Both the position numbers and the translations under genes were made by a program. DNA of 63,623 bases, filler included, from Reclinomonas americana ATCC 50394 (lineage: Eukaryota), in assembly GCA_048213135.1 (NCBI GenBank). It is 5 parts of 2 records of this genome, joined end to end, with 100 filler letters (N's around TTAATTAATTAA, not from the genome) between each part and the next. Parts side by side here need not be neighbours in the genome. Positions count along the whole stretch, not along the records: positions 1 to 16,307 come from PS015181.1; 4 more parts are not named here. The stretch is one strand, 5' to 3'. Shown one piece after another: positions 974 through 44,905 of this stretch (position 1 is its first letter; the number at the start of each line of letters is the position of its first letter). The notes under the pieces are model-generated. The model had not been told where the DNA came from. It saw nothing but the letters and a program-made list of their open reading frames with translations, and made no database searches.

Positions 974-3900
974 CTAGAAGCGCATAGCAGCGTCAGTGAT
1001 AGCCTGGCATCCCTCCGGCGTGAGATCTGTGCAACGCATGTCACCGATCTGTGTGTTGTGCTCACGTACGTACATGCACTGCGAATACTCACTTGTCTTG
1101 GCGTTTTTCTCAGCCACAGGAACAAAATAGACCCCCTCAACTGTCGGCACCACTGCAGGCACCAGCAACTCGCGCGCCGCCTGGCCTGCAAAGTCCTTGT
1201 CGGTCGCAGCCACCAAGACCACCAACACCGAGCGACGTCGTTCATCCTTGAAGTCCACTGCATCGTGTCGCATGAGAACCATGGACACGCGCTCTCTTGA
1301 CCCCACAATCTGCACTACTCACCTTTGCGTGCTTCGGCAATTGCGCGTATCGTCTCCGCGTCGATCGTGTCAACCACCAGCATGACTCCGTCACTCGTGT
1401 CAATAGGGTTCACAACCTCGCTCCAGTCCGGCGCCCAGCCCTTTCCAGACAGCATTGTGAGGTACACTTGCACAGCCGAGAACAGTTCCAGCTTTCGACC
1501 ACTGGCGCCGACCACGGTGCCGTTGATTACGCGCACGGTTTTGGAAACCTGCAGCGGCAAAGCGCTGCTCGCTGCCGCTGAAAAAGAACGTGAACGCGTC
1601 GATCTGTCGTCGCGGTCGGCCATGGTGGCACTGTTGGCGAGAGAGAGCTGCCCACTAAGCCTCTTGCAGGTGTCGCTGAGAGCAGCATATTCTTGTGCAG
1701 CTCGCTCGAGTTGTTGGCGAAGGGCGGTACAGTCTGCAGTCAAATGCTTGCATTTCGCCACCGAGTCCGCCAACCTCGCATTGACTTGCTCGAGTTCTCC
1801 AGTCAAGTTGTCGATGCGGATGTTGGCGTTCTCGAATTGCTGTTGGAGGCGGTCTCGGTCGGCAGTGGTAGAAGTCAAATTGTTGGTGAGTTGATCGCGG
1901 TCCGCCGTGGCAACGTCAAGCTGCTGTTTAAGCTGGCCACAGGTTGCTTCGGCGGCGCCAAGCTCGACAGCTGACAAGGCCAGCAACGACTCTCTCTCGT
2001 CAAGACGGGAGATATTGACTCTCAGCTGTTCAGTTGCACTGTCGAGCTCCAGCTTGGTGTCGTGGTGCGCAGCCGCCTCCTCCTCCAGCTGCCTCTTCGT
2101 AATGTTGTGGTGTTCCTCTTCGGCCAAGGAGGCTGCGCGGCTGGCATCCAACTCACCCTGGAGCTCATCGCGATGCTGAGTTGCTGTAGTCAATGCCACT
2201 CGAAGCTGCATCATCTGCTTGCGAGCCTCCACAATTTCGGCCTTCAGTGAGTCGATTTCGAATTCGACACGTTCAAGCGCCTTCCATCGACGCTCCACTC
2301 GCGCGACAATGTCCGAGAGGCTGAGTGCTTGCTGGCGATCCTGCTCCGGCAACAGTGCCGTCAGTGCGGCAGTTATCAGTTCGTGCTGCTCCTTGAGGCC
2401 TTCCCGCGACTCCTCCAGTCGCTGCAGCGCATCCATGTCGCGACGCTCTGCCGACGGCAAACCAAGCAGCTGCTCCTGCAGGTGGACGGTAGGCTCAATA
2501 ACCTGACGATGGATATGTTGCAGCAATCGTTGAAGTCGCACTGAGGCGTCTGCATCCGGTGCTGGTGTCGTCGTCGTTGCACAAGCATAAGCAGTTTCGT
2601 ACGCAGCAATTGTTGCGACAATCCGCGTCAAACACTCAAGATGGGCGTCCGCAAGGCTCTCGGTAAGCTTGCTGTCCAGTTGCTGGCGTGCTGTGTCGAG
2701 TGCCACACGCAGTCGCGACTCCAGTTCGCATTGATCGTCAGTTGATGCATCGGAGACTGTGTGCGAAGCCGCCGCTTGCCAGCGCTCCAGATCCACCTCC
2801 GAACTGAAGTCGAGTCGCGCCAGTCGATCCAAGGCGCACAAGAGCAGCGCGCCGCGTTCCTCCATCATCGACTTGTTGGTGAGCGCAGCGCGCTCCCAGT
2901 CGCGGGCGGCGGTCTGGAAGGCGTCCCCCGTATTGGCGTTGCCGATACGTGCAGTTTGCGGACGATCGTCGTCTTGCAACGCCGTGCGCTGATGCTGAAG
3001 CTGATCCGCTCGTGCCTTTTCCTTTGCCGCGCGCCTCTCGGCAGTCGACAGTTGATCCATTAGCATGGCAACCTGAGCTGTAAGTGTGGAGTTGAACTTG
3101 TCCAGAGTAGCGGCGTGACTGGCCTCTCCACGAAGGACGTCAACGTGTCGCAGAAGTTGGGTTGCCCTTGCTTCGAGTTCGCGGTTGCTCGTGTTTGCGT
3201 CCTCGAAACGCCGTACCACTTGTTGCACCTCGACCTCCTTGGCCGCCAGCGTTGCTGTCAGCAGCCCAATCTGCTGTCTTGCGGCGGCAAGTTGTTGCAT
3301 GGCACCATGGTGCTGCCGAAGCAGCTCGCTGTTCTCTGACGTCGCTGAGCCGCAGGCAGCGGGTTCGCGACGCATGCTGTCGCGCTCTTCGGAAAGCTCG
3401 GCAATCTTGCTCCTCAACTGGACCACCACCTCCTGCTGCTGGTCGATGTCGGAGACGAGTCGCTCCAGAGTTTGGCACAATGGTGCTTCTGCGTAGATGC
3501 CGAAACTGTTGCGGCACTTCAGAAGCAGCTCACGTACTCGTGACTGCATGTCGCGTGGCGTGCCGTTTGCGGCGACGGGCTCAGAACCTGCAGCGGTACT
3601 CGACCGAGAAGATGTTGGTTGTGCAGCTGCCGCAAGACGGGCACACTCGGCGTCCACTCGATCGCGATCCGCTTGACCGAGGATTCGTTGCTGAGCCGCC
3701 CGCAGGATACTAAGCTGGTTGTCCCGCTCCGTCACCATCCGGCACGCCTCTTCCGCCGTCTGCTGCCACTCGGCGGCCTGCTTCTCCAGAACTCGCACTT
3801 GATTGGCACGCTCGGCCAGCATCCGGTCCTTCTCGTCTCGCCCTCGCTTGTGATGGCCAGTTTGCATGGCCAACACATCCTTCTCGCAATCGCTCTCGCC

Positions 3901-4465
3901 CTCTGATGCCAACAAGGGGGGTGATCGCGGTGGAACAACCAGCCGATTGACTTGCCATCCGAGGTGCGCATCCGTTACAATGTCATGTTGCGAGCTCAGT
4001 CGTACCTCTTCCTTGCCAGTCTGGTCGACAATTATGAACTGCGCGCGTTGTGTGATGGGCGAAGATGAGCAAACAAATGTAACACAGCACTCTCCGCCCA
4101 GTGAAGCACGCGGGCACATCTGCAAGCATATTTGTATGCACCATCACCACACAACCAATCGAACACTCACCATGAAACGCCGATCTCCGCAGTCAAGGTT
4201 TACGTCAACTGCCCATCGCTTCTCGATCTCGTCGTATGAAACCGACTTGATGCCTGTGGGGAGCTCCTGGCCCAAGGTGAACTGCGGCCACTTGCCAGTC
4301 TTCACATCCTTGACAACAAGGAACACTGGAAGATGGAGGCACGGGCGTAAGATGTGAGGGTGAAAGTCAATTCTCGGTAACTAAAAAGCGTGGGCAAGTA
4401 CCTTTGCTGATTGGTGTCCGTTGATCCTCGCACCTGCGCTTGTACACTAGTAACACACGCACCAT
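974..4465 (-). CDS. Family gene A: CBM48-like N-domain + coiled coil + alpha/beta C-terminal domain type 1 (about 1050 aa)
   Basis: Exons 4465-4402, 4325-4171, 4038-1323, 1257-1093, 1026-974; all GT-AG with consistent phase; exons 1 and 2 (64 and 155 nt) match genes B and C in length; ends NLTPEGCQAITDAAMRF*. Confidence 0.85.
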
Positions 4466-4782: not shown

Positions 4783-7700
4783 TCAGAACCACATTGCAGC
4801 CTCCGAGAGAGCAGCTCGTCCATCGTCAGTCAGCTTGTCTGCAACGCACGCAGCAAGTTAAGACTCCACCTCGCCCACACACCCATTCCCCATCGCCACT
4901 CACTTGTCTTGCCATTGTTCTCCACCTGCACAAAGAACACTTGCTGCACTCGCGACGCCAGTGACTCGCGTGCCGCCGCAATATCGAAATCCCTCGGCAC
5001 CATGACCACCAGCACGGACCGACGACGTGCATCCATCAAGTCCACTGCACAGCAATTCAGCACCTTTGCTTCTCTATCCCTTCCTCTTCTCCTGTCACCA
5101 CTCACCTGCAAACTCGGCCATCATGTTCTCCACATCCACCACCAGCATGATGCCGACGGTGGAGTCGGCTGGAATCGCACTGTCGCTCCAGTCCGCCGCC
5201 CAGCTCTTGCCAGGCAGCATGGTGAGGTACACCTGCACGGCTGACAGCGACTCGGAGTTGCGATTGGAGGTGCCGTTGATCACTCGGACCGTGGTGACGG
5301 AGGAAAGTCGTCGAGTGTAGTGAGTCGGGGTCGAGCGTGAAGGCAGAGCGTCGCTGCCGGCAGCCGCTGAGACAATGGAAGGTGGTGGAGTCGGCCTGTC
5401 GGCATCGTCGCCGTTCCTGAGGCCATCGAGCTCGGCAGTGGCATTGGCGAGCTGTTGTCGAAGGCGCTCACAGTTGGCGCGGAGCTCATCGCACTGCGCA
5501 GTCAGCAAGACAGAGGAGGTCACCTGGTTTCTGAGTTGCTCGTATTCCGCAGTGAGTCTGCCGCTGTTGAAGATGGCATTGGCGAGTTGCTGTCGAAGAG
5601 TGTCCCGGTCCAGGCTGAGATGATTGCGCTCCACAGTGAGGGTGTTGATGGTGTCCTTGGCAGTGGCGAGTTCTTGATTGAGCTGGTCGCGAGACTGGGA
5701 GAGGATGCCGTTGGCGCTGGTGGCCTTGGTCAGCTCGACATTGAGTCTCTCGAGTTCCACCTTGTCGAGGTTGCGCGCCGCCGTTTCGTCGTCCACCTGG
5801 TGCTTGGTGATGTTGTGACTTTCGACTTCCGCGTCGAATTTCCGCTCCGCGACAAGTGTGGCGGCGCGCTCGGCGTCCAGTTCGTGTTGCAAAGCATCCA
5901 GGTGCTGAGTGGCCGATGTGCAGGCTTGCTGAAGCTGATCGACCTGCTTCTTGAGTTGTTGAGCTTCCTCGTTCGACTCATGCAACGCCTCCAGCAGTCT
6001 CTCGCATTCGTCCAGCCGCTCCTGTACCGCTCCCATCAAGGTGCCACACTGAGCCTTCCAGTAGTCGATGCAAGCGCGCGCGGCTTGTTCCAGGTCTGCA
6101 ACAGTGCGGTCCACTCGTTGTTGCTGCTGTTGTTGATCTGGCGTGTTCTCCGCAAAGTACTGGCACAGCTTGTCAGCAGTCTCGACAAGTCGATCCACGT
6201 CAGCAAGCGCCTTGTCGCGCTGCTGAACGACGCTGGCGATGGCCTCCTGCACATTCACCTCGCCGTCACTGGCACCGAGTTGGAGAGTGGAAACAATCTG
6301 CGCGAGATCCGGCAGCTTGCTCTCCATATGCTGACGTGCAGAGCCCAGTGCCTCTTGGAGTCGCGACTTGAAGTCGAAGTGGTCGTCAGTCGAGGCAGCG
6401 TCCTCCGCTGCAGTGGATCGCCAGTGCTGCAGGTCCACCTCCGGGTTGAAGTCAAGGTTCCTCAGTCGTTCCAGGGCGCACATGAGCAGAGCGCCGCGTT
6501 CCTCCATCATCGACTTGTTGGAGATGGCAGCGCGTTCCCAGTCACGGGCCGCGGTCTGGAAGGCCTGATTTGCCGCTCTGAGCTCATCCACGGCATTGCG
6601 GAGCTCGATGAGATTCGATTCCGCTTGGTTGTGGTCATCCTGCAACAACTTGAATCGATGTTGCAAATCGTCCGCTCGCGCCTTCTCCGCTGCCGCCCTG
6701 TTGGAGGCGTCTGCAAGCTGGTCCGCAAGCGTGTCAACTTGAACCAACAGAGTGGCGTTGAACTCTTCCAGAGTTACGGCGCGACTCGTCTCGCCGCGAA
6801 GCTCGTCAACCTGGCGCTGAAGTTGATGGACTTGCTGCTGTAGTTCGCTGCATCGAGCTTCCGAGGAGGTGAACCGTCGCGTCACCTGCTCGACAGCTGC
6901 CTCTTTTGCCAGAATGGCTTGACTTGTGGCCTCCAGAGTTGCAGTGAGCGATCCGATCTGCTTGTTGGCTACGACCAGCTGTTGCGAAGCCTCACCGTAC
7001 CGGCGAAGCAGCTCGCCGCTTTCCGACGGTGCCGACGTTCGGCTCGCCAGCTCACCGCGCAGGCTGTCGCGCTCTTTCGAGATGCTGACCAGAGTCGTGT
7101 TGAGGTCCTCGCAACGGCGCTGCTGGTGTTGAATCTCCGCAAGCTGCCGGTCGTGGGCCTCGACAAGGCCCTCGACTACACGGCGCAAGGCAAATTCGTT
7201 CAATGAGCTGCCAGTGCGGCATTGACGAATGAGCTCGCCAACACGTGTGTGCAAGTCGCGCGGAACGCCTTCTGCATCGACAACCTCGAAGCCGGCGGGA
7301 GCTTGCAGCTGTCCAAGTGGCTCCGATACCGGTTCTGGCTGTGACGGGTTCGGCGTCGACGTCTGCGTCGGCGCCGCGGTACGCAGGCGCTCAAGTTCAA
7401 TTGCCAGGATGTCTCTGTCGGAACGCAGTTGATCACGCTCCTCCTTCAGACTGCGGTTGTCAGCCTCCAAGAAAGCCACCTTGTTGCCGGATTCGGCAAG
7501 TCTGCGGTTCTCGGCCCTCAGATGGACCAACTCGTCTTCGCGATTTCTCGTCATCAGGTAGGCTTCGTCTGCTACGGCGCGCAGCTCGGCGACTTGGTCC
7601 TCCAAACCCCGCACCTGGTCGTCTCGCTCAGCCACCATGCGGCCGTACTCCTCCACTGAAGCAGCTAGTCTTAGACGTTCAGCCTGAACAGAATCCAATT

Positions 7701-8187: not shown

Positions 8188-8474
8188 ACTCACCAGGAAC
8201 CGTCGATCGCCGATGTCGAGATTCACATCAACAGTCCACTTCTTCGACGCCTCGTCAAAGAAAACTTCTTTGACACCAAGGGGTAGTAGCTGACCAAAGG
8301 GAAACTGCGGCCACTTCCCTGTCGCGAGATCCTTGATGTAGACAAACACTGCAAGCCATGATTGAGCTGCAAGCAGCACACTTATTGTTCTGGGGAGCGA
8401 GCTCACAAACCGCGCTTGTTGGACGTTTCTGGGTCATTGCGCATGCGCTTGTACTCCAGAGTCACACGCACCAT
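4783..8474 (-). CDS. Family gene B: CBM48-like N-domain + coiled coil + C-terminal domain type 1 (about 1072 aa)
   Basis: Exons 8474-8411, 8348-8194, 7908-5106, 5044-4904, 4838-4783; shares AFQTAARDWERAA..NKSMMEERGALL.CAL.RL with A and a similar segment with C; ends NKLTDDGRAALSEAAMWF*. Confidence 0.85.
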
Positions 8475-8640: not shown

Positions 8641-10468
8641 TCACTGCGACGACGCCATCCTCCCTGCCTCCAAATCCCGATCCTCACCTCTCTCCCCTTC
8701 TCCCCCTCCACTCGCCACCACCACCACCTCCTCCTCCACCCTCTCCGCCACCCCCTGCAACGCCTGCTTGCACACCGGCACCAAACACTGCCCACAGAAC
8801 TCGCCCAGCTCCTTCTTCCCCGTGTTCCCAATCGCCTGCCACCACCACCACCGCTTGTCAGCACCTTTCCTCCTCCCCCTCCTTTTCTCCTCCGCCCCCC
8901 TTCCCCAACGCAACTCTCTCGCCCGTCCGCTGATTCTTCTCCACATGCACAAACCCAAATCGATCGTCAAACCGCACCGCCTGCCGCTCCAACTCCACCG
9001 GATCCTCCGTGCTCGTCTTGGTCACCCCGTAGCGCATGCTCGACGCCATGCTCACCAGATCCTCCGTGCCGTTGCTCGGCAGCACCAGCAAGACGACAAC
9101 GCGAGGGTCGTCGGTGTTGACTGCGACGAGGAGGAGTCAAACTCAGCTGTCGAAAACGCCTTCATCCTGGAAGAAGTGCTCACCTCCCCGCCGTTGCGCA
9201 GCCTCCCGAATGTCGGCCGGATGTACGCGCGTCTCCATCGGGTGGCACACCACAATGCAGTGATGGCGCTCGTCGTGGGCGTCAACGACTTGCGAGGCGT
9301 CGGAGACACAGGTAATGTTGACGCGCAACATTGGCCGTTCGCGCTGTCCGTACGCGCCGACCACGGGCGTCAGCGCGTGGTGCACCATGGTGACGAGCGA
9401 CTCGTCTTGCCGGCGCTGCTGTGGTTGCGACGGCGGGGCCGCGGCGGTGGACAGCAGCAGCACCGACACGTTGGTTATCGGCACCGGAGGCCGAAGTGGT
9501 CGCAGTGGACTCGGATCCGAGAAACAACACAGTCGTACGTCGACGTTGTCGGGCGCAGCTGGCGTGCCGACGGATTCGGAAGACGACGGTCCGTCCACAG
9601 CTGGTGTGGATGCGGGGCTACCAATGGCTGGTGGTGATGCAACGCTGTCGACGACCGGTGTCACGAACCTATCGCTCTCCAGTACCGCCGTGGCACAGTG
9701 GTCCTTCATCGACCCCACCTCCTTGCGCAAGTCGCCAATGCCACCCAGGACTCGCTGAATAAGTTGGGCGTTCAGCTGTTCCAGTACATGTATCCGTGCC
9801 TCCTGAGTCTGCAGTTTTTCTAGGAGATTCTGGTTCGCCTTCTCACGCTCGTCGGCCGCCAGCACGAGTTGCTCACTGAGTTGCCGACGGAGCTCGGCGT
9901 AGCGCAGCTCCAGCACGTGAATCCTAGAGTCGTTTTCCTCCTTCTGAGCCTGCAATTCGGCTTGACCAGCATGGTACGCCTGCTCAAGGTCGCTGATTGA
10001 CTGTGCGGCAGAGGCGGCCTCCAGCGTGTGTCGACTCTCCTCTCCCTGCAGCTCGCGAATCCGCTCCACGGCAACTTTACAGGCAAGGTCAAATAGACGT
10101 GGAAAATCTCGAACCAAGAATACCGTCGTTTCGACAACGTCCTCTGCGTCTCCCGACGGCGGCACTCCTACAGCAGAGTCGAATTCGTATCGATGGCTAT
10201 CAACACCAAGAATGTCTGCCGTGTTTGCCAGTATGTTGTCGATCTTGCGGCTTGCATCGTCGATTTCCCAGGCAATGCGTGCCACTGGGTCAGCGGCAGC
10301 AGCGGATCCGGATGAGCTTCCTCCGCTTTGTGTGACGATGCGGCTGCCACCCTTCATAGGCTGCGCATTCGGCATCAACACTGTAGCAATGGTGTCGACT
10401 GCGTCGTCATTGCAAGCACCCGCACGTGATCGATTTCGTTTCGAATTCCGGCTGAACAATGCTCCCAT
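8641..10468 (-). CDS. Family gene E: short coiled coil + alpha/beta C-terminal domain type 2 (up to about 561 aa; start uncertain: 10468, 10375 or 10357)
   Basis: Exons (10468)-9184, 9120-8915, 8835-8641; HHCIVVCHPMETRVHPADIREAA matches gene C HQCVVYCHRAETRVTPVEIRDSA; same intron positions as C. Confidence 0.75.
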
Positions 10469-13400
10469 CCAACACTCGCCGAAGTCTGTGCCGAGCAACA
10501 GAGATCGGCGCGAACATCTCGGAATCGAACTCTCTTCTGCGCGCTAACTGCACTCCTTCCTGTCCTGCCTTGCGCTTGCCTATCCCTCTTCCTTCCTTCG
10601 TTTCTCTCTCTCTCTCTCCACATCCCACATTGAATCGATAACGCTCCACCTCTCCCATTCTCTCTCCCTCTTTCATCTTTCACTTCCTCTGCGCCCATAT
10701 TCTCCATCTCATTCTCTCCCCCTCCACCTTCTCCTCTCCCTTCCCGCATCCCTCACCTCTTGTTCAACCAAATAACTCCGCGGCACCTCTGCGTAATAAG
10801 GTGCTTCACACTCCTCGTCAACCTCCTCTCCGTAAGAACCCTCCACAACAGCAGCCCACAAAAAAACGCTCTTCAGCACAGTGACGCACGCAATCACGCA
10901 CGCACTGCTCACTCAAGATATTCTTGTTTGGTGTGNNNNNNNNNNNNNNNNNNNNNNNNNNNNNNNNNNNNNNNNNNNNNNNNNNNNNNNNNNNNNNNNN
11001 NNNNNNNNNNNNNNNNNNNNNNNNNNNNNNNNNNNNNNNNNNNNNNNNNNNNNNNNNNNNNNNNNNNNNNNNNNNNNNNNNNNNNNNNNNNNNNNNNNNN
11101 NNNNNNNNNNNNNNNNNNNNNNNNNNNNNNNNNNNNNNNNNNNNNNNNNNNNNNNNNNNNNNNNNNNNNNNNNNNNNNNNNNNNNNNNNNNNNNNNNNNN
11201 NNNNNNNNNNNNNNNNNNNNNNNNNNNNNNNNNNNNNNNNNNNNNNNNNNNNNNNNNNNNNNNNNNNNNNNNNNNNNNNNNNNNNNNNNNNNNNNNNNNN
11301 NNNNNNNNNNNNNNNNNNNNNNNNNNNNNNNNNNNNNNNNNNNNNNNNNNNNNNNNNNNNNNNNNNNNNNNNNNNNNNNNNNNNNNNNNNNNNNNNNNNN
11401 NNNNNNNNNNNNNNNNNNNNNNNNNNNNNNNNNNNNNNNNNNNNNNNNNNNNNNNNNNNNNNNNNNNNNNNNNNNNNNNNNNNNNNNNNNNNNNNNNNNN
11501 NNNNNNNNNNNNNNNNNNNNNNNNNNNNNNNNNNNNNNNNNNNNNNNNNNNNNNNNNNNNNNNNNNNNNNNNNNNNNNNNNNNNNNNNNNNNNNNNNNNN
11601 NNNNNNNNNNNNNNNNNNNNNNNNNNNNNNNNNNNNNNNNNNNNNNNNNNNNNNNNNNNNNNNNNNNNNNNNNNNNNNNNNNNNNNNNNNNNNNNNNNNN
11701 CGTTGATGTCCTTCTGACAATGACAGACTTGATGTTGTCCGCGCTAAAATCGGTGTCTTTCTCGCAGCGTTCTGCCCTCGTTCCTCTTCTCCAACCGCAG
11801 GGTGCACTGACAGAGAAGAGAGAACTGCTTCAAGACGTCTTTGCCGGATTTCCAATCGAATCCTGTCAAAACAAGACACGACAAGCTCCTTTCCCTCTTC
11901 TCCCTCTTTCTCCGCTTACATTAAAAAAACCCTGTTCACAAATCCCTCTATCCCGGTCCATCCGACGCATCCCCACCCGTCAGCATCAGTGGCGTGCTAT
12001 CAGTGGCCGACAGCGAGTCCGACTCGGGCGTCGGTAATGAGGCCGCCGGATCTCGCCTCGCCGGCGCCAAGTGCCGCTGCGATGACGCCGACGCCGCCGC
12101 CGAAGAGGCCGGAGCTGCAGCACCGAGAATGGCAGCAGCAGCCGCATCGCCAAAGTCGTCTTCCTCGTCGTAGCCGCACACTGTGTGAGGGGGGAAGGAT
12201 GAGCGGGCGGGCAAATCAATCATCGGAAATAAAAAACATACCATCGGAGAAAGGCACGTGCTGCTGAGGCGAGGGCGTCAGAAGGGTCTCGGACTCGGTG
12301 GAGCGTGCGCGAGGCTTGAGCGTTATCTGCACGAGAAGAATGGGAGCAGCGAGATAAGCGAAAGAACTCAACATCGAAAACACACTCCTAACAGATATAG
12401 TTGTGGAAGGAAAGCACATTTCCCTTCCCCCTCACCACCCTTTCCCCTCACCACCCTTCCCTTACGCAACTCTCATCGACCGCACCCCCGAATCACTCCT
12501 CGACCCACCCGCCAATCCCACCTTATGCCCATCCTCATCGCCATCCTCCTCCTCCTCCTCCTCGCCACCACCCTCCCCATCCCCGCGCACCACCGTCCCC
12601 GCCCCCGGTAATGTGTGCACGGTACTCGCGGCCGACGACGCCGATGACGTCGGCGACAATGGCGACACCCCGACCTCGGCCGGCGGCACCTGCAACCCAC
12701 TGCCACTACCACCACTCCCACTACCACTGCCGGCGGCCACCGTGGCAGCCGCGGCGGCCGACGGACTGNNNNNNNNNNNNNNNNNNNNNNNNNNNNNNNN
12801 NNNNNNNNNNNNNNNNNNNNNNNNNNNNNNNNNNNNNNNNNNNNNNNNNNNNNNNNNNNNNNNNNNNNCCGGGCGCCACCTCGGCCAGGTACGACACCAC
12901 GGCGTTGAGGTCCACCTGCGGCAGCAGGAACGGGAGCGGGATGTTGAGGTCCTTGAACCAGAGGATGAGGTTCCAGAAGGTGGTCGGGTGGTCGCGGAAC
13001 AGGTTTTCGTCGCAGGACACGTCCTGTGAAGCGGGCAAAGGAGAGGTCAGCGCAATAAACGGGGAGGGAGGGGGAGGGAAGGGAGAGGGAGAAGGGGGAG
13101 GGGAAAGGGAGAGGCAGAAGGAGAGAAGGTGAGGAAGGTGGGAAAGGAGCGTGTGCGTGAGAGAGAGAGAGAGAACAAGCAAAAGAGAGAGAGACGATCT
13201 GCAAGTGAATCCTCCTGACATGGACACAAACTAAGACAATCTATCACGTATTATCTCTCACTCTCCCTTTCACTCGCACTCTCGCACATACATGCAACAC
13301 ATCGAGAAAGAGAAAGAGAGAACGAACAAAAGAGAGAGCCTCTTTATCGACACAACAATCTCACTCTCGTTCTCCATCTCCCTCGCACAACTGCAGCACA

Positions 13401-16400
13401 CGGCGATAGAGAAAGTGAGAACGAGCAAGAGAGAGAGAGAGAGAGAGAAAGAAGAGAGACGATTCGAGCAAGTGAATCCTCTTTATCAACACGAACGAAG
13501 ACAATCTCACAGATCTGATCTCTTTCCTTCTCCCTCTCCCTCGCACAAGTGCAGCACACTGAGATAGAGAAAGAGAGAACAAGAAAAAGAGAGAGAAAGA
13601 GAATGAAGACTCTTTATCGACACAACACAGACAATCTAACAGGTCTCATCTCTCTAATTCTCCCTCTCACTCTCGCACACACACATGCAGCACACGGAGA
13701 AAGAGAGAACGAGAGAAAGAGAGACAGAAAGAGACGATTCGACAAGTGAAGCCTCTTCTATCGATACAAAGACAATCAAACAGGTCGCATATCTCTCTCA
13801 TTCTCCTTCTCACTCGCACACACAGAGAGAGAGAGAAGCAGAGAGAGAAGATTTGGCAAGTGAAGCCTCACAACAAGGACACAATCTCACAGGTCTCATC
13901 TCCATCATTCTCCCTCTCCCTCGCACAAGCACATGCAGCACACGGAGAAAGAGAAAGAGAGAACGAGCAAAAGAGAGAGAAATAGAATGAAGCCTCTTTA
14001 TCGACACAAACAAAACAACCTATTAGGTCCCATCTCTCATTCTCCCTCTCTTGAACAACGGAGAAAGAGAAAGAGAGAGTTCTCATCTCTTTTATCCTGT
14101 CCCTCCATTTCACACATACACACCTACAAAGAGATGAAGAGAGACACGATTCATCAAGTGGATCCTCCTCTCTATCGACACAAACAAAGACAATCATTCC
14201 CCCTCCGTCTTTCACACACACGCGAGTACACGAGGTGAGAGAATGAGAGAATGAGAGACAACTGGATCCTCCTCCCAATCGACAAATGCAAAGACAATCT
14301 AACACGCCTCATCTCTTGCATTCTGTCCCTCCATAAAACACACATGCGCACAGAGAGAGAGACATGATCCAGCAACAGGATCCTCCTGTCTATTGACAAA
14401 CACACAGACAACCTGATACTTTTGAATTCTGTCCCCAAACACACACATACAGACACACACATGCACACACAGAGAGACTCCTCCCTCTATTAACAAAGTC
14501 AATCTCACTCTCAGTCTCTCCCTTCTCTTTCGCCCCCTCCCCCTCCCCCTCCCTTCCCCCTCACCCCCCTCATCCATACCTTTCGCAACAAATTCTCCAC
14601 CTCCTTCTTCAACAGAATCGGGTTGAGGTACTCGCACGTGATACCCGGCGACGTCCTTCGCACCCTCTCCGCCGGCGACCGCAAGTTGCCCGAGTGCCGT
14701 CTCCTGTGCACAAAATTCATCAACATAGGTTCTCAGAGGAAGAGAGGAGGGCGACAGGACGCAACGAATCCGTCGAATGTCGCTCACTCGACGATCGCGT
14801 CTCTTGTGAGGCGCGTCCTGCCGCTGCCGTGGCTGCTGGAGAGTGAGACAAACAGAGGAAAAGAGCGGAACGAGAAGAATGACGTGCTACCTGAGCGAGA
14901 TCCTGGTCGACCACCAAGATACACCTGCGGGACAAGACATGAGCACAGGACAAACAAAGCACTCTCCCACCGCCACACGCACCAAGAATCGCGAGACAAA
15001 GCGCTGCTTGCACTTCGGACACGTCGTGCAATAGTCGTGCGCCGTCCACGTCCAGCCCTCACGAACTTGCTCGTCCGTGAGCGGGTGATTGCACTTCGGG
15101 CAAATGTTCTCCAAGTGGAAGTAGATGCGGTGGGATTGAGAGCCTAGAGGAGGGAGAAGGGATAGAGAGGGTGAGAAATGAAACGAGGATGCACTTGTCT
15201 GTTTCTCACTCGATCAGATACACATTAAGAGAGTGCGAGGGAGAGAGAGGATCACAAAACTGCGTGTGAAGAATGGAAACGGAGTCTGGGAGTGACGGAA
15301 GAGAAGGGAAAGGAATAGAGAGGGTAAGAAATGAAACCAGAAAACTGGCTCGCATTCTGTTCCCTGGTTCTCTCTCGGAAACACATTAAGAGAGAGGGAG
15401 GGAGAGTGAGACGATTTAGCAAGTGGATCCTCCTCTCTATCGACACAAACAAGGACAATCATTCTCCCTCCCTGTCTCTCTCNNNNNNNNNNNNNNNNNN
15501 NNAGAGGGAAGGAAGAGGAGGAGAGAGAGAGAGAGGGTAAGGGGTGAGTGACTGCGGGAGATAAAGAATGTCAATCGTCAAGAGCCTCTTTCTCCTTTGC
15601 ACACATAATGTGTACGTTTCTCTCTCGCTCTCTCTCTCTCTCTCTCTCCGCGTACTGTATCTCACCGCGTGTGGGTGTATGCGTGTCCCTCTCTTCGCGT
15701 GTTTTTGCGCAAGAGCACATCGTACAAACCTGGAGGCAGCCCCGACGGATCTGGTGACGGCGACACGACAGTCTTGCTGATTCGAAAACTGCTCACCCCA
15801 CGGCACGTCAATAAATGAGCAAGGACAAAGGGTGTGGCGTAAATACGAACCTGGGGTCGTGCAGAAACGGTGTATCTCGTTTGGATAGTCTCAGCAGGCT
15901 GCGGTTCTCCTTGGCCGCAATGCTCTCGTCAAAGTAAATTATCTCGTAATCCTGCGCCGGGCGCGTTAGCAGCGGGGACGAAAGATAGTTGTGCAAATTG
16001 CGCAACTTCTGGCGTCAATGCCGCCGCAAACGACGTGTGTGGTTCGCTGTCGCCGTCGGGTGATGATCTGCGATGGGGGGAAGCGATGGTGAGCGGGAGG
16101 GTAAGGGAGGAAAGGAAGATGAGGGAAAGGGAGAAAAACAAAGATGCCAGCGCTCCATACAGGTAGAAGAACAAGCACAGAACGAGTAAAGAGAAGAGTG
16201 AAGCAATGCTAGACAGTCAGACACACACAGAGAGAAAGAGAGACACACACGCACAGGGAGACCAGACAGACAGACAGAGAAAGAGAGAGACAGACAGACA
16301 GACAGACNNNNNNNNNNNNNNNNNNNNNNNNNNNNNNNNNNNNNNNNNNNNTTAATTAATTAANNNNNNNNNNNNNNNNNNNNNNNNNNNNNNNNNNNNN

Positions 16401-19215
16401 NNNNNNNATCCCCCTTTCCCTTTTTTCACCTCGCCGACACATCATACATCGCCTGATTCAAATGCGACTGATGTATCCGCACCGCCCGATCGATGCGATC
16501 CTGCAGGAACCGCATCCACAACTGCGTCTCCACAAAGCGCGACAGGAATTTCTGCACCCCCACACAAAACAATCAGCACGCCACCCTCTCTCATCCTTCT
16601 CCTTTTCCCGCACACTCACCCTTCCTGCCGGATCCGTCGCATCCCGAATAAACGGCTGCGTCCGAAACACCTGATCCGGCTCCATTGGCGTCTTAATGTC
16701 CTCCTCGCGCATCATGTGATTGCGGTAGCGCTGGAAGATGCCGACGTAGAAGCGCAGGAACGCCTCGCGTGTCTCCTGCTGATCAAACTCGCGCGGGCGA
16801 CGCGGAGCGCTCTTGCCGTGCGAGCCGCCGCCGCCGGAGCCTTGCACGGGCGGCGAGTCGATCATGTCCATGGGCGGGAGGGGCACGTAGAACGCCGAGT
16901 CGGCCAGCATCAAGTCGGGGTGGTCGGGCTCGAACGCCGGCACCACCTCGCGGAGGCGCTTGAGGAGTTTCGAGCGGGGTTTTTCGGGGAAGCCGCCGTA
17001 GTCGAACTGCGAAAGAGGGAAAAGAGAGGGAAAGGGAGAGGGTGAGTGGAGGGAAAGGGGAAGGCGAAAGCAAAGGCAAAGGGGTAGGAGAGGGAGGGAA
17101 AGGAGAGAACGGGAAGGACGGGGAAGAGGAATGGGAGAGAGGGAAAGAGAAAAGAGAGAAAACTGAAGAAAACTTGCGCGAAATAGAGCGAGAGAGCATT
17201 GAATAGAGAGAAGTGAAATAGCGATTTCAGCGAGAAGGAGAGGTTGCAGTTGAAATGAGTGCAAGAATGGAAGAAAATGGGAGAGATGTGGGAGAGATGT
17301 GAGGGACTGAGAAAGAGTGAGCACCTGGAGACAAAGTGACTGAGACAGAAGGTGAGGGAGCATCCCCTTTCTCTCTTTCCCCTTTTCCTTCTCCCCTCCC
17401 TTCCCCCCACCCACCTCCGGCGGAAAATGCACAATATTCCGATCCAAATCCACCCACACCACCTCCGCCGGCATCATGTCCATCGAAAAGTTGTCCACCG
17501 GCAACCCCATCAAGTACGGCACAGGTGCCGTGAGAAAGTCGACGTGCAACGGCGGCAGCACGGGAATGTACACGTGTTCCCAGTGGAAGGGGAAGATCAG
17601 GGCCAGAGCGGCTGCGGAGTGGGGAAAGAGGGATGAGAGGGTGGGAGAGAGGGAGGGCGGAGGGAATTGACCAAAGAGAGAGCGCACCCTCGGCACAGTA
17701 CGTCAGCAGCGACAGGCGCGACGACAGCAGCACCACTTTCTGCTCCAGCAGAATCGCATACAGCAGCATCAGCACGTTGTCAATCTCCAGCGCCTGGAAG
17801 AGGTACTTCATCGGCACCTGCGTGACAAATAAAGAGTGAGTGACGCAAATTCGTCTCCCAAGCTGCTTGCAGTGCACCCATTAGCTCGCTCACACACGTC
17901 ATGCTCGAACACTCTAGTCTTCTCCCTCTTCCCCTCACCGCTTATATCGCTCCATTGCCTTGCTCTCCTTGTGCAACTCTCCTAACGTCGCCCATCTTGT
18001 CTGTGCTTGCTGCATAGCCATCTCACAACTGTTTGTGTTGCATCTATTGCCTCGCTCGCTCTCCTACTTGTGACAATTNNNNNNNNNNNNNNNNNNNNNN
18101 NNNNNNNNNNNNNNNNNNNNNNNNNNNNNNNNNNNNNNNNNNNNNNNNNNNNNNNNNNNNNNNNNNNNNNNNNNNNNNNNNNNNNNNNNNNNNNNNNNNN
18201 NNNNNNNNNNNNNNNNNNNNNNNNNNNNNNNNNNNNNNNNNNNNNNNNNNNNNNNNNNNNNNNNNNNNNNNNNNNNNNNNNNNNNNNNNNNNNNNNNNNN
18301 NNNNNNNNNNNNNNNNNNNNNNNNNNNNNNNNNNNNNNNNNNNNNNNNNNNNNNNNNNNNNNNNNNNNNNNNNNNNNNNNNNNNNNNNNNNNNNNNNNNN
18401 NNNNNNNNNNNNNNNNNNNNNNNNNNNNNNNNNNNNNNNNNNNNNNNNNNNNNNNNNNNNNNNNNNNNNNNNNNNNNNNNNNNNNNNNNNNNNNNNNNNN
18501 NNNNNNNNNNNNNNNNNNNNNNNNNNNNNNNNNNNNNNNNNNNNNNNNNNNNNNNNNNNNNNNNNNNNNNNNNNNNNNNNNNNNNNNNNNNNNNNNNNNN
18601 NNNNNNNNNNNNNNNNNNNNNNNNNNNNNNNNNNNNNNNNNNNNNNNNNNNNNNNNNNNNNNNNNNNNNNNNNNNNNNNNNNNNNNNNNNNNNNNNNNNN
18701 NNNNNNNNNNNNGGAAGGGAGAGGGTGAGAAGGGAGAAAGGGAGAAGGGAGAAAGGGAGAAAGGGAGAAAGGGAGGACGGAGAAAGGGGGTTAGGGAGAG
18801 AGGGAAACAGGGGAACGGGCGAATGGGGTATGGGCGAAAGGGGAGAGCAAATGAGAGATAGAGAGATAGAGAGAGAGAACGTGAGTGGGGGAAAATGGAT
18901 GAGGAGATTGGGGGATTCACGCAACTGCAGCGGCGGGTGGATCCACGCCATTGGCAGTCGCAGGTGGCGGTTCTTGCAACTCGGATTCTGTGCGCATTGG
19001 CAGGACATTGTCAGCGCAAGTGTTGACGCAAAACGAGACAGATCGAGAAGGCAATAAAGAGAAGCCATTGATGATTGTTGCATGTCACAGAAGAGAGAGA
19101 GAGAGAGATTCCTCTGTTCTAATGCAAGCGCCTGTCACACACCCTGCTCGTTCGCTCACTCTCCCGTTCTCTTTCGTATTGCAGGCATGCAAGGTGGAAT
19201 GGACAAATCAAGCAG

Positions 19216-35966: not shown

Positions 35967-36039
35967 AATGTAAGTAGAATGTGATATATCTCTATGCAAG
36001 GGAGATGGCATGGAAGAGAAAGAGAGAGGAGGGAGAATG

Positions 36040-37030
36040 TGGGCGGGCGGAAGGCAAAGGTGCGTCTATGATATTCAAGTCGTCACTGCGCTTCTTCAGC
36101 AGGTTGCTTACTTGTTCTCTCTCTGGCAGCACCGGCACCACCGCAAAAGGCATGCTGCACCCTGATAGATTCGTGTGATACAGATGTGTGTGAGGGGAGA
36201 GTGTGGACGGGAGAACGTCAACGGTAAGGTGTTCAACTCTTCACTACACGTCTGTAAATAAGTTCCCCACTGCTCTGTTGTTATTCTCTCTCCAGCAGCA
36301 TAAAGTGCATCAGTTCATCTCGCGCAATTGTCTTTTTCTCACGGATGGGATAGACACGGATGAGGCAGACTGCTGACGAGTGGGCGGCAAAGGTGAGTGA
36401 GTGAGTGAGTGAGTGAGTGAGTGAGTGTGTGAGTGTGTGTGTGTGTGTGGAGCGTTCAAATCGTCGCTGCGCTTCTTCAAACAAGTTTCTTACTTATTCT
36501 CTCTCCGGCAGCACCGACACCACTGCGAAAGACAAACTGCACTATCTTGGAGCAGGGTTTGCATTTTCGTGCTCTAATTCTCTGCTGTGCACAAGCTGCA
36601 CCTGTTCATCTCGCACAGTTGTTGTCTTCGGTATCACGGATGGGGTAGGCCGTGGACGAGTGGGCGGCAAAGGTTTGCAATGTATTCAGATCTTCACTGA
36701 ACTTCTCTCTCTCTCTGGTAGCAGCACCGGCACTACCGCGAAAGGCAAACTGCACTTTGTTGCACTGTGTTGTGCTCTTTCAACAATAACTTCGCTGTCA
36801 TTCTCAAGCACGTGCACCTCCGTGCTGTGCACAAACTGCACCTGTTCATCGTCTGTGCAGCGCTGGTGTGTGTGACAAAGGGGGTGTGGGGAATGTGATC
36901 GGCAAAGGTTTGCATCGTGTTCAGTTCTTCACTGCACGTATTTAAACAAGTTTCTCACTATTCTCTCTCCGGCAGAACCGGCACCACGGCAGTACGCACA
37001 AACTGCACCAGTTCATCTCGGGCAATTGTC
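36040..37030 (-). repeat. Degenerate tandem array (about 5 units) of gene C's last exon plus 3' flank
   Basis: Recurring ttctctctccggcagcaccggcac and ggcaaaggt motifs; copies translate to TIARDELMHFMLLERE* and AVVPVLPEREQ. Confidence 0.8.
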
Positions 37031-40000
37031 TGTGGTGCACAGTGTGAGAAAGGCAGTGGCTGGTAAACAGAGGGGGCACATCAACGCAACTCGAGTCTCC
37101 CGCTCCTCGACGAGCACTGAGGCGCGAGAGTCGAACCGCACGAAGTCTGGCGTGCCGCGGTCCTTCTCGAGGCCGTATTTCAAGCATCGCGCCATGTCGG
37201 GGAGGTCGATGGTGCCGCTCTTGGGCGTCACCACCAGCACGAGGACGCGGTCTTGCTCCACGTCGACTGCGCACGGAGATCGTGATGAGCGACTGTTCAG
37301 CAAACCCCCTCCTTTCCCTTTGCCGCTCACCTCCAACAGACATGGCCGAGTCGCGAATCTCCACTGGCGTCACACGAGTTTCGGCGCGGTGGCAGTACAC
37401 GACGCACTGGTGGCGCTTGAGGTCGGCGGGCGTGCATCGCTCCGTCGGCATGAATACGAAGCGGCGACCCTGCACGAGGCCGCCGGCCATTTGCAGAGAC
37501 TGCGATAGGGTGCGTTGGAGTGGCCGCTGGGCCTCGCAGGCGACAACGAGGATGTTGGTGTTGCTCTGGGGGTCGTCGCTGTACTGCGTCATCCAGCTGG
37601 CGTTGCCTTGCTGCGGGCGCGAGGGGAGCTCGCGGTCGTCGGGGCGGGTGGGACGCGGTGATACCGGCGGCTGAGGGGCGACGACAATGTCGGTGGGCAC
37701 GGTTGCTGCTGGCGCGGCTGCTGTGGCGATTGGTGGCACAGGGCTGCTGCCAGAGGACGAGGCGCCACCGGTCTCCTGAGTGCCGTTGGCATCGAGTTTG
37801 ACTGAGGTGAGGGCGTCGTCGATCTCCTGCTGCATCGCGGATACGTCGCGCCGCGCCTGCGCGATGAAGTCCGCTACCGTCTTCTTGGCGGCATCGCGTT
37901 GGGCGGTGATGGTCGTCAGTTGCTCGGCGAGGCGATTGAATACTTCGGTTGCGGCGGTAAGCTGGCTGCTGAGATCGGCGAATTTGCGGTTGGCTTCAGC
38001 GAGTTGTTGTTGGAGGTTCTTGCAGTCGGCGGTCGAGGCCGCCAGATCGATCTTGAGCTGATCGCGCTCCGAGGTGAGGGTGTAGATCGTGTCCCTGGCA
38101 TCTGCAAGTTCCTGGCGGAGGCGCTCACACTGCGCAACCGAGGCAGCCAGTTGAATCGTGAGTTGATCTCGCACGGTGTTCAGTTCGCTAATGGCGTCCG
38201 CGAGTTGTTGTCGGAGATTTTCACGGTCCGCTCTGAGTTGATCGCATTCCGATCTGAGGGCGCTGATCGTGTCCTTTGCAGTGGCCAGTTCCTGACTGAG
38301 CTGGTCGCGGAATCCAGTGATGGTGCCGATCGTGCTGGTGGACTTGGTAAGCTCCAACTCCTTCTCGTCAAGGCGGGTGAGATTGGCACGAAGCTGCTCG
38401 CCGACCTCCTCCAGTCTCCGCTTGGTGTCGTTGTGAGCAGCCATCTCGGCGGCCAGTTCGCGCTTGGTGATGTAGTGGCTTTCGACTTCCGCGTCGAACT
38501 TCCTCTCCGCCGCAAATGTGGCAGCACGCTCGACCTCCAGCTCGCGCTGTAGAGCCGCCTGCGCGTCCTTCAGAGCGTTGCAGTTGTGAGTGACCGCGTC
38601 GAAGGCCTGTTGCAGCTGCTTGATCTGCTTGCCGGCCTCGACTTGCTCCGCAGCAGCCTGTTTGGCCGCCACCAACATATCCTCTCGCAGGTCTCGAACT
38701 TGGTTGTTGGCCGTGTCTCGCTCTGCCTGCAAGTGCCTGACTTGCTCATGCAGCTCCCGAATTTGCGTGTTGCTGCGCTCCCGCTCCACTTGCTGCTGCC
38801 GCGCCTGCCCGTTTGCAACCCGCAACTCTTCTTGCAGCCGCTCGCATTCGACAACCCGCTCTTGCACCGCTGCCTTCAATGTGGCACACTCCGCCTTCCA
38901 GCAGTCGACACAGTCGTGCACGGCTTGCTCCAGGGCTGCTTCTGCTTCGTGTGCTCCCCGAGGTTGCTGTTGCACCTGGCCACGGTACGGCTTTTGCTGT
39001 TGTTGACTCGGTTTGTTGTCTGCCAAGTACAGGCGCAGCTTGTCAGCAGCCTTGACGAGGCAATCCAGGTTAGCAAGCGCCAAGTCTCGCTCCTGGATAA
39101 CACTGTGGACAGCCACAGTTACATCAACAGCGACGTCACCGGAGCTGCGTTGAAGTGCCTTCGCGAGCGCGGCACAAATGTCGCGCATTGTTGTTGTCGT
39201 GTCGTCAACGATCTCGGCAAGTGTGGCTTGTTCGTGCCGTAGGCGACGTGGCAGTACCGCTGACAGGCGGTGTATGGCATCGATGCCCATGTCAATCATG
39301 TCGCGTACGGCTGCCTCGAGACTGCTCGCTGGCTTGGTCGGCATGGCCAGTCGCAACTGATTGAGAAGTCGCAGATGGTGATCCACGACGCGGGCTGCAG
39401 CGAACTCGAAGTTGCAGACGCCCTCGTCAGGTACATCGTCCATTAGCAGCGACGTCAGTTGAGTGGCTGACCGGGTGATCACTGTCTCTCGTGCCTGCCA
39501 AGAAGCTTCAACACGAGCGACGACGTCGGTGAGGCTGAGCGGTTGCTGGCGATCCTGCGCAGGTACCAAGGCCGCCAACGCACCAATGACCTGTTGCTGC
39601 TGTTGAGTCAGGCCGTACTTGGATTCTGCTACGCGCCGCGTCACGTCCATGTCGCGCCGCTCAGCCGACGGCCAACCGAGCAGCTGTTCTTGGAACTCGA
39701 TGGTGGGCTCGACAACTTGCCGATGCATGTGTTGCAACAGTCGCTGAAGTCGGGCTGGTGTGTCTGCATCTGGTGTTGGTGTGTCTGCATCTTGTGTTGG
39801 TGTAGTTGCGCAGCCGTATGCCGTTTCGAATCCTTTGATAGTTGCGTCCACCTGAGTCAGCCACTGGGATTGCGCCTCACTGAGGATGCAAGCAAGCCTG
39901 CTTTGCAATTGCTGTCGCGCAGCGTCCAGTGACTCGCGAAGCTGTTGCTCACAGTTGTCGTCACTCGATGCAGTTGAGGTACCCTCAGAAGTGCTGCGCC

Positions 40001-42330: not shown

Positions 42331-42806
42331 TCAATCAAACCACGCTGCCGCCCCCCGCATCGCCGCAGTTCCTTCCCGCGTAAGTGCCAGCTTGTCTGCA
42401 CAGAAACGCCACTCAATCAGCACACCACTCCCTACCACCCACACCCCTCCATGGCCACCCCCACACTCACTTGTCTTTACTTCCTGGGTGACCACCAAGA
42501 AGAACAGCTCCTCCTGCGACGACACCACGTCCGGCACCAGTCGCTCGCGAACCAGCGGCACCACCGTGGCGGCACTGGCCTCCGCCACCATGATCACCAG
42601 CACCGATCGGCCGTCCTTGAGGTCCACTGCGAAGACAAGAGAGTGAGCCACACCAGAAGAAAGGAGAGGGGGGAAGAACACCGCAACAACTGCAAGGAAG
42701 AGGAACAGGAGAAAGAGAAGAAGAAGAGCAACAACAACAACAACAACAACAACAACACCACCACCACCACCACAACAACAACAACAACAACAACAACAAC
42801 CACAAG

Positions 42807-42837
<31 letters not shown>

Positions 42838-44905
42838 GCAATAACAATAACAACAACAATGTCAACAACAGCAACAATAACAACAACGTGAGGGAGAACA
42901 CGAAACAGAATGAGGAGAAGGAGAAGTAGAAGAAGGAAACGACGATATAATTAAGGAGGAGGAGAAGAACAACACCAACAACAACAACATGTACAACAAC
43001 ATGAAGGGGAAGAAGAAGGAGGAGGAGGAGGAGGATGAGGAGGAGGAGCTCGAGGAGAAAAACAAGAACAAGAAAAGGAGAAGAGGAAAACTTCAGGAAG
43101 ACAACATGAAGGAGGATATTAGGAAGGAAGTACAGTAGCAGAGACAAGGACAGCAAACAGCAACAACAACAAGAAAGACCAGGAAGAGGAACACGAGGAG
43201 GAGAAGGAGAAGAAGAACAAGAAAAAGAAGAAGGAAGAGAGTCAGGAGGAAGAGAACAGAAGAAGAACATCAACAACCCAACAACAACAACAAGCAAAAG
43301 AAGAAAAGACCAAGACCAACTTTCTCCTCCNNNNNNNNNNNNNNNNNNNNNNNNNNNNNNNNNNNNNNNNNNNNTTAATTAATTAANNNNNNNNNNNNNN
43401 NNNNNNNNNNNNNNNNNNNNNNNNNNNNNNTCCACCCCTTCCCCTTCCTTACCTCCACCCCCTCCCTCCTCCCCCCGCCCGCCCTCCTCACCACCTCCAC
43501 ATCACCCACCACCCCCACCCCACCCCCCCTCCTCCGCCACCACCACATCCATCACCAACATCACCCCCACCTCCGGCCCCGCCCCCGCCGCATTCTCACT
43601 CCAATCCCACCCATTGCCACCGCCACGATTGTGCATCGACAGCTGCCAGCGGAGGCTCCCAAACGCCTCCGCGCGGCAGCCGACGGTGCCGTTGATCACC
43701 TTGACCTTCGGGAAGGTGCGTCGCTCGCCACTCCGTCGCGGCACCATGAGCAGCAGCGGTGTCGGTGGCGGTGGCGAAAGGGCACTGCTCCCCGCAGCGG
43801 CGGAGACAGAGATCTCTGCTGGCGCAGGCGCAGGAGAAGCAGCAGCAGCAGCAGTGACGATAGCCACCGGCGTGACCGGCGCAGGCGAAGTAGGTGCCGT
43901 GGACTCGGCGACGCACTCCTCGAGCAGTTCAATGTCCTCCTCATCCACATCAGGTTGTGAAAGGTCGTCGTCGTCATCATAGACATCGTCGTCGCGGTCG
44001 ACCACAGGCTCGGCGACCATCGTGCTTTCGACCGACAGCAACAGCGGCTGCAACACGTCCAGGTGCTTGCCCACCATTTGCAGCAACCTTTCCAGCTTGG
44101 CATCCATGCGCTCCAACTGCAGCGGCTTGGCCGCCACCTCCTCGGCCTCCAGCAAGCGGCCTCGCAGATGCGCCACTTCTGCCGTGGCCTCGTCAAGAAG
44201 GACGCGCAGCCTGTCCATGTCGGCTTGGGCAGCCTCCTTCTCGGCGCGCACCCTGCCGATCTCGTCATCCTTCTCGGCGCGCAGTTGGCTAATCGCTGCA
44301 TCCGCGGCCTCCTTCTCGAGTCGCACCCTGCCGATCTCCTCGTCCTTCTCGGCGCGCAGTTGGCAAATCGCTGCATCCTTCTCGGCACGCACCCTGCCGA
44401 TCTCCTCATCCTTCTCGGCGCGCACCCTGCTGATCTCGGCATCCTTCTCGGCACGAACCCTGCTGATCTCGGCATCCTTCTCGGCACGCACCCTGCCAAT
44501 CTCCTGATCCTTCTCCGCCCGCACCCTGCCAATCTCCTCATCCTTCTCAGCTCGCACCCTGCTGCTCTCGGCATCGGCGGCCTCCTTCTCGGCCTGCAGC
44601 CTGCCAATCTCGGCTCGCAGTCGACCAACTTCCTCATCGCGAGCCTCCCGATCGGCACGCAGCGACTCGACCTCTGCCCGCAAGGCCTCCTTCTCAGCCT
44701 CCCACGCCTCCTGGGCGATACGCCTCTCCTCAACGAGAGCTTGGAGCGACGCCACAGTCTCCTGTGTCTTTGCGTCGGCCACCGCAAGCTCCTCGGCCTT
44801 GGTGGCCAGCAAGCGATGGAGATCCTGCAACTCTTTCTCAAAATCACGCGGCTCCTCCTTGGGCGCTGCGGCCTCGGCCGGCGCGCGATCGTCCACGTCA
44901 GACAT
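42331..44905 (-). CDS. Family gene D: 11-residue-repeat coiled coil + C-terminal domain type 1 (about 535 aa)
   Basis: Exons 44905-about 43519, 42626-42471, 42395-42331; KVKVINGT..DWSE..VGVMLVMD / VDLKDGRSVLVIMV / NKLALTREGTAAMRGAAAWFD* align with A and B; crosses a scaffolding linker. Confidence 0.8.
42730..42890. repeat. (AAC)n/(ACC)n microsatellite in a gene D intron
   Basis: Directly visible. Confidence 0.9.
44230..44610 (-). repeat. Coding 33-bp tandem repeat encoding (AEKD[E/A]EI[G/S]RVR)n
   Basis: Visible in both DNA and translation. Confidence 0.9.

Follow-up and report, generated by a model that had tools for sequence, protein, structure and literature searches.

A conserved C-terminal domain of probable alpha/beta fold on predicted coiled-coil proteins of Reclinomonas americana, possibly a reduced pseudo-GTPase

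Three genes of Reclinomonas americana ATCC 50394, here named A, B and D, share a C-terminal domain that is real and under purifying selection. They lie in a stretch of 63,623 nucleotides, filler included, joined from parts of assembly GCA_048213135.1 and referred to below as the window. The domain is predicted to adopt a five-stranded, doubly wound alpha/beta fold, and its fold class is very probably known already. With somewhat less than even confidence we read it as a nucleotide-free, CENP-M-like pseudo-GTPase that lacks strand beta2 and forms an exchangeable binding tip on a protein with a CBM48-like head and a coiled-coil tether.

Gene models and copies of the domain

All motif blocks listed for gene A in the initial annotation were recovered on the minus strand between 974 and 1548. 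They fall into a single reading frame only once two introns are spliced out, which gives a predicted domain of 147 residues. The 3' end of a large exon (1323..1548; minus strand, as for all coordinates of genes A to E) encodes strand 1 (1536-1522) followed by a short loop or helix, strand 2 (1476-1453), a helix with the sequence DWSE (1437-1408), strand 3 with the motif GVMLVVD (1389-1369) and the helix after it (1362-1324). Intron 1 (1258..1322; 65 nt, GTGAGT...CAG, GT-AG, phase 1), whose position and phase are common to genes A, B, C and E, is followed by a middle exon (1093..1257) with strand 4 (1231-1211), a helix (1198-1160), strand 5 (1132-1115) and an invariant Lys-Thr (1099-1094). Beyond intron 2 (1027..1092; 66 nt, GTGAGT...CAG, GT-AG, phase 1) the last exon (974..1026) encodes the final helix and a TAG stop at 976-974.

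Searches with tblastn using both domain halves as queries identified two more copies in the window, in gene B (E values 1e-18 and 3e-9) and in gene D (1.5e-6 and 9.5e-6), and no third, the next matches having E values of 1.5 or worse. The copy in gene B (4783..5301; exons 5301-5106, 5044-4904 and 4838-4783; 130 residues) has both introns (61 and 65 nt) at the positions and phases found in A and its stop at the homologous place; the whole gene B model comprises 1072 residues. Gene D was recovered as a first half with strands 1-3 (43538..43717) and a second half (42331..42626; exons 42626-42471 and 42395-42331) containing a phase-1 intron of 75 nt. The helix after strand 3 was not recovered in gene D, where G-rich sequence and an N-gap (43331-43430) occupy that place. 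The blocks previously described as common to A, B and D were thus borne out, with gene D lacking this one helix.

BLAST identity of the domain was 50% between A and B and 37% between A and D. Across the three copies 41 columns were invariant, among them W38, D41, W42, S43, D60, R104, E105, K129, T130 and N131, and local alignment scores exceeded those of all 500 shuffles in each of the three comparisons (z 44, 14 and 14). By the Nei-Gojobori method dN was 0.35 and dS 1.01 for A and B (129 codons); the two halves compared between A and D gave dN/dS pairs of 0.62/2.01 and 0.52/1.26.

The intron models of the domain are predictions, and an error is conceivable in the gene model or in the class of fold: A and D might retain intron 2, or the fold might be other than a sandwich with a parallel sheet. 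In both A and D intron 2, of 66 and 75 nt respectively, is indeed in frame and free of stops, and the two partial structure models described below are of low confidence. Nevertheless we regard such an error as very improbable, since intron 2 of gene B is 65 nt long and the frame arrives at the conserved last helix only after its removal, the translations of intron 2 in A and D are unlike each other (that of A is conserved neither in B nor in D), and all three copies have canonical splice sites that stand in register.

The window is eukaryotic scaffold sequence with many introns, which are filled with microsatellites, and with N-gaps. Besides genes A to E it contains a DENN-domain gene at about 12000-17900 (minus strand), maybe longer, with many exons and long microsatellite-rich introns (Pfam DENN, E values 5e-17 and 1e-11), a diverged kinesin motor-like gene from 55193-56143 (plus strand) onward (Pfam Kinesin, E value 7e-18), and, upstream of gene D, exons of a small charged helical protein at 45850-46170 (minus strand). 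Four twelve-base islands (16352-16363, 26825-26836, 43375-43386 and 61010-61021) are flanked by 44 Ns on each side; the three that were inspected have the sequence TTAATTAATTAA, which is an assembly gap linker and not biology.

Strand and helix layout

Five strands alternating with helices had been proposed for the domain, and this alternation was recovered, except that the element first taken for a helix is mostly an amphipathic strand. Residues 25-32 are edge-strand-like in all three copies (hydrophobic moment 2.1 at 170 degrees versus 0.6-0.8 at 100 degrees), and residues 38-47, which hold DWS[E/D], are helix-like (1.1-1.3 versus 0.3-0.4). The order of elements is strand 1, a link of 11-15 residues, strand 2, Gly, helix, strand 3, helix, strand 4, helix, strand 5, a Lys-Thr loop and a last helix. 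Low-confidence structure models of the two halves matched this periodicity-derived layout wherever they were ordered: the first (pLDDT 53) has strands at 4-13 and 54-62 and a helix at 64-73, with 23-50 unordered, and the second (pLDDT 58) shows strand-helix-strand and the last helix. The proposed five-stranded alpha/beta sandwich agrees with both periodicity and half models, and the sandwich arrangement itself is a prediction. Without its beta2, a small GTPase shares the five-stranded layout of CheY-like domains, and topology alone therefore cannot separate these two readings.

Head, stalk and type 2 tips

The gene A model comprises 1050 residues, with the domain starting at residue 904. The rest of the gene (1549..4465) encodes a putative head (exons 4465-4402, 4325-4171 and the start of the exon at 4038) and a stalk of about 770 residues, rich in A, L, R, E and Q, which is predicted from its composition to be a coiled coil and had only weak coiled-coil Pfam matches. 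The head is weakly assigned as CBM48/AMPK1_CBM-like. Spliced heads of 110 residues scored weakly against a profile of 22 bacterial AMPK1_CBM sequences in each of A, B and C (P 1e-4, 2e-4 and 3e-3, as single-profile values); the HHalign probability was 6%, and no Pfam match was obtained for six exon pieces.

The heads of A, B and C (4402-4465, 4171-4325, 8194-8474 and 41390-41668) contain two introns at identical positions and phases, and the donors of their first introns vary (GTACTT, GTTTGT and GTAGAT). Gene D starts near 44905 (43502-44905) without a visible CBM-like head, and its stalk holds about ten 11-residue repeats, eight of them with RAEKD.

Genes C and E end in another tip, here called type 2 (type 1 being that of A, B and D). 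In gene C (36958..37571) its first intron has the position and phase of type 1, and so has the first intron in gene E (8836..9496, first two exons and second intron). The two type 2 tips are 39% identical. Types 1 and 2 align over a short stretch around the first intron, with an hhalign score above all 83 shuffles, and the shared intron position and phase together with this weak alignment suggest that the two types may be remote sisters. The nearest ESM Atlas neighbours of the first tip exon of gene E were of the CheY clan, at scores of 0.85-0.87 that lie below 0.9 and serve as a lead only.

Intron 2 of both type 2 tips (37090-37030 and 8914-8836) was modelled best with a GTTGCG donor, and splicing there yields similar last helices in C and E. 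In gene E (9143-10543) the type 2 tip is preceded by a short coiled coil and by an N-terminal part that is unrelated. Downstream of gene C (36000-37030) we observed several degenerate tandem copies of its last exon and 3' end, with 60-89% identity and a spacing of about 160-460 nt.

In head and stalk, gene A is as close to gene C as to gene B, or closer (58/48/59/42% identity for A-C versus 57/43/46/42% for A-B), whereas its tip is 57% identical to that of B and 18% to that of C. This mismatch points to an exchange of tips or to very uneven divergence.

Comparison with known families

With exon halves as queries, no significant relative of the domain was found in Pfam, NCBIfam, PADLOC, PDB sequences, a set of 1.84 billion representatives or a word-indexed protein set, nor in scans of GTDB, metagenomes and viruses. 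The type 1 domain had no usable match in the ESM Atlas either. These searches were insensitive, since they were run with exon halves, 46-96 residues long, and with three-sequence profiles. A limited literature search found no published description of the domain family and its architecture.

We compared the domain with profiles built from prokaryotic loci only. We left out loci that were incomplete, contained stops or were cut off by a contig end, which retained 21 of 30 for TIR_2, 29 of 30 for receivers, 17 of 17 for flavodoxins, 4 of 6 each for CAP12-TIR and NDT, 21 of 30 for archaeal Ras-like proteins, 19 of 22 for B12-binding domains, 15 of 18 for ThsB-TIR, and 28 of 30 for a mixed TRAFAC GTPase profile whose loci the Roc model had identified. 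Because eleven profiles were run against five sequences, the P values have to be corrected. For A and D the receiver, flavodoxin, CAP12-TIR, NDT, ThsB and B12 profiles gave background scores.

The best-scoring of seven profiles was the mixed TRAFAC GTPase. Its score for A, 8.1 bits, was reached by none of 1000 shuffles and by none of 75 real non-GTPase alpha/beta domains; the score for B, 4.1 bits, was marginal (reached by 7 of 1000 shuffles and 1 of 75 decoys), and D gave no signal, with 100 of 1000 shuffles as high. The archaeal Ras-like profile scored 5.7 for A (2 of 1000 shuffles and 2 of 75 decoys as high) and gave no signal for B (344 of 1000), nor did a merged profile (190 of 500). All GTPase alignments follow one register, from beta3 to the last helix, which aligns strand 2 and the Gly of B with beta3-DxxG, strand 3 with beta4, strand 4 with beta5 and an Asp of A with the NKxD Asp. 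The initial annotation had considered the C-terminal half of a degenerate small GTPase; the best score and a register that in B reaches beyond this half to beta3 and its glycine speak for a degenerate GTPase, though the signal is weak.

Three sequence motifs of active Ras-superfamily GTPases, G1, G3 and G4, are absent. In agreement with the earlier statement that no P-loop is visible, G1 (GxxxxGK[ST]) is absent from all three copies. At G3 (DxxG) the Gly is invariant (G35) and the Asp substituted in each copy, the sole D..G match in A sitting elsewhere than after beta3, and G4 ([NT]KxD) occurs in none of the three. End-to-end alignment places the invariant Lys-Thr near SAKT, though judged by eye it lies several residues farther from strand 5 than in G5, which counts against a GTPase. 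Strand 2, long, amphipathic and followed by the invariant Gly, was counted in favour. Periodicity leaves room for five strand-like segments and none for beta2, and a profile with beta2 deleted scored 10.3 bits for A compared with 9.5 for the intact one.

The signal depends on strand 3. When its motif was kept and the rest shuffled, the score of A was matched by 1 of 500 shuffles, that of B by 22 and that of D by 183, so that only A was significant. With the seven-residue motif masked, no profile was supported in any copy, and the GTPase profile scores were reached by 34 (A), 184 (B) and 47 (D) of 500 shuffles. In profile-profile comparisons none of 83 column shuffles reached the GTPase score of the domain; triplets of non-GTPase sequences (real TIR, ThsB, receiver and others) did so in 5 of 222 local trials and were as high end-to-end in 20 of 222. 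HHalign probabilities were at most 20%. The type 2 tip, the probable sister domain, gave no GTPase signal, and exon-half queries gave no match to CENP-M in Pfam or PDB sequences. The similarity to small GTPases is thus a weak preference drawn from sequence rather than a fold assignment.

Alternative ancestries

A lineage-specific alpha/beta domain with neither GTPase, receiver nor TIR ancestry, derived from another Rossmann-like or an untraceable family, has perhaps a one-in-several chance of being the correct explanation. It might be a binding module or an enzyme that uses the conserved Asp, Trp and Lys, as the ten invariant residues from W38 to N131 could mark a pocket. That no database searched held a relative and that a single strand carries the GTPase signal fit this explanation; the insensitivity of those searches and the survival of the GTPase register of A when the strand-3 motif was kept argue against it. 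Rather unlikely, in our view, is a pseudo-receiver of the same topology and separate, CheY-like ancestry, which at the stalk tip would serve in binding or dimerisation independently of phosphorylation. The receiver-like sandwich proposed earlier finds its counterpart in an invariant Asp that ends strand 3 and an invariant Lys past strand 5 (D60 and K129, which we take to occupy the receiver phospho-acceptor and Lys positions), in the five strands shared with receivers and pseudo-receivers (Pfam Response_reg, OKR_DC_1_N and GlnR_1st), in a length of about 130-145 residues and in the CheY-clan neighbours of type 2, to which type 1 is linked. But K129 lies about six residues beyond strand 5, and the Lys of receivers is nearer to it; N-G-T follows strand 1 in place of the acidic pair, and a conserved Thr/Ser switch after strand 4 is missing. 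The receiver profile (29 sequences) remained at background for A and D (509 and 243 of 1000 shuffles as high) and gave 47 of 1000 for B, the profile-profile match spans five columns, type 1 itself had no usable Atlas match, and its link to type 2 is weak (17 to 63 aligned columns, with no end-to-end alignment).

We consider it improbable that the tip is a very diverged TIR/SEFIR-like domain that oligomerises via the coiled coil and acts as an NAD+-cleaving enzyme or a signalling scaffold, the head sensing glucan. Its topology and its C-terminal position on a coiled-coil protein are compatible with TIR, SEFIR, ThsB and CAP12 TIR domains, and the TIR_2 profile gave a 61-column alignment whose register is sensible (P 0.06). 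The catalytic Glu of TIR domains lies 12 residues after strand 3; A has a Glu at this distance and B one in the same helix, though 7 residues after the strand and one column off, while in D the helix was not recovered. No acidic column is common to the copies between D60 and D77. TIR domains further carry an aromatic-I-S-Y/H box in the first strand and a WCxxE helix motif. Strand 1 reads V[RK]VINGT in all three copies, A and B have no W...E, and the W...E match in D is not at the TIR position. Against TIR_2, 42 of 1000 shuffles scored at least as high as A, as did 17 of 95 non-TIR decoys; for B and D the numbers of such shuffles were 229 and 86 of 1000. For A, B and D the corresponding counts were 316, 547 and 142 with ThsB-TIR, and 338, 329 and 268 with CAP12-TIR, a profile of only four sequences. 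Scores were thus at background for the TIR_2, ThsB, CAP12-TIR and NDT profiles alike (7 of 83 column shuffles as high). Exon halves gave no TIR match in PADLOC or Pfam and no SEFIR match in Pfam, and SEFIR loci numbered only two in 61 genomes. With neither motif and with background profile scores, the TIR/SEFIR-like assignment proposed initially is poorly supported. The flavodoxin-like alternative fared no better: its profile was at background (439, 303 and 503 of 1000 shuffles as high for A, B and D), and the FMN phosphate loop of flavodoxins, S/T-x-T-G-x-T, is absent from the domain.

Proposed function and known counterparts

If the domain is a pseudo-GTPase, it would descend from a small GTPase by a reduction like that of CENP-M, in which the P-loop, NKxD, the Asp of DxxG, and strand beta2 along with switch I disappeared, leaving a compact, five-stranded, doubly wound alpha/beta module. 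Such a domain would presumably bind no nucleotide and have no enzyme activity, and might serve as a rigid cap for protein binding, placed on a long coiled coil at the end opposite to a CBM48-like head that would bind glucan. Since the head would bind glucan and the cap a protein, the partner would be tethered to glycogen-like particles, and exchange of a type 1 for a type 2 tip would switch the partner. Glucan binding and tethering are proposed for the whole protein by analogy.

A CBM48 and a coiled coil are also combined in PTST, where they bring a partner enzyme to the glucan particle. PTST is short, has its CBM48 at the C-terminal end and is not known to carry an alpha/beta tip. In the present protein, by comparison, the weakly assigned head is N-terminal and followed by the stalk of about 770 residues. 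PTST stands for PROTEIN TARGETING TO STARCH (PMC4339375).

The closest precedent for the tip is CENP-M. According to Basilico et al. 2014 (PMC4080450), its sheet consists of five parallel strands, beta2 and switch I having been deleted; the P-loop is degenerate, DxxG has diverged, and GTP is not bound. Its five parallel strands, deletions and lack of GTP binding are the pattern that we infer for the domain. In that paper CENP-M is a stand-alone kinetochore subunit reported only from metazoans, whereas our domain forms the end of a fusion with a head and a coiled coil; its segment between strands 1 and 2 (11-15 residues) is also much shorter. CENP-M is at most a parallel case, likened to the domain by description, and probably not an orthologue. 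Class i pseudoGTPases (p190RhoGAP pG1/pG2, dynein LIC, AAGAB) are described in extracts of PMC5593906 and PMC12490416 as scaffolds or adaptors whose G motifs have decayed and which do not bind nucleotide, often in multidomain proteins. They were assigned there by high-probability profile searches and crystal structures, in contrast to a best HHalign probability of 20% for our domain, and the same extracts mention no CBM48-like head with a coiled coil. Together, CENP-M and these scaffolds are the reason for reading the domain as a nucleotide-free binding cap. A bolder proposal, which we think is probably wrong, is that a CENP-M-like reduction occurred independently outside animals and produced interchangeable tips on glycogen-gripping, CBM48-headed tethers that were swapped between paralogues, types 1 and 2 being the extremes of one ancestral module.

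Whether the tip is a pseudo-GTPase, a pseudo-receiver or a member of an untraceable family, the prediction is nearly identical, namely a non-catalytic interaction module. The practical gain at present is negative but useful, in that an NADase assay would not be the first choice. A pseudo-receiver or other common alpha/beta fold would add one more lineage-specific orphan domain. Should the pseudo-GTPase reading be true, the domain would represent a new pseudo-GTPase family and indicate that a reduction of the CENP-M type happened more than once, and the whole protein would be a protist equivalent of the starch-targeting proteins of plants, reaching much farther and bearing a tip that can be exchanged.
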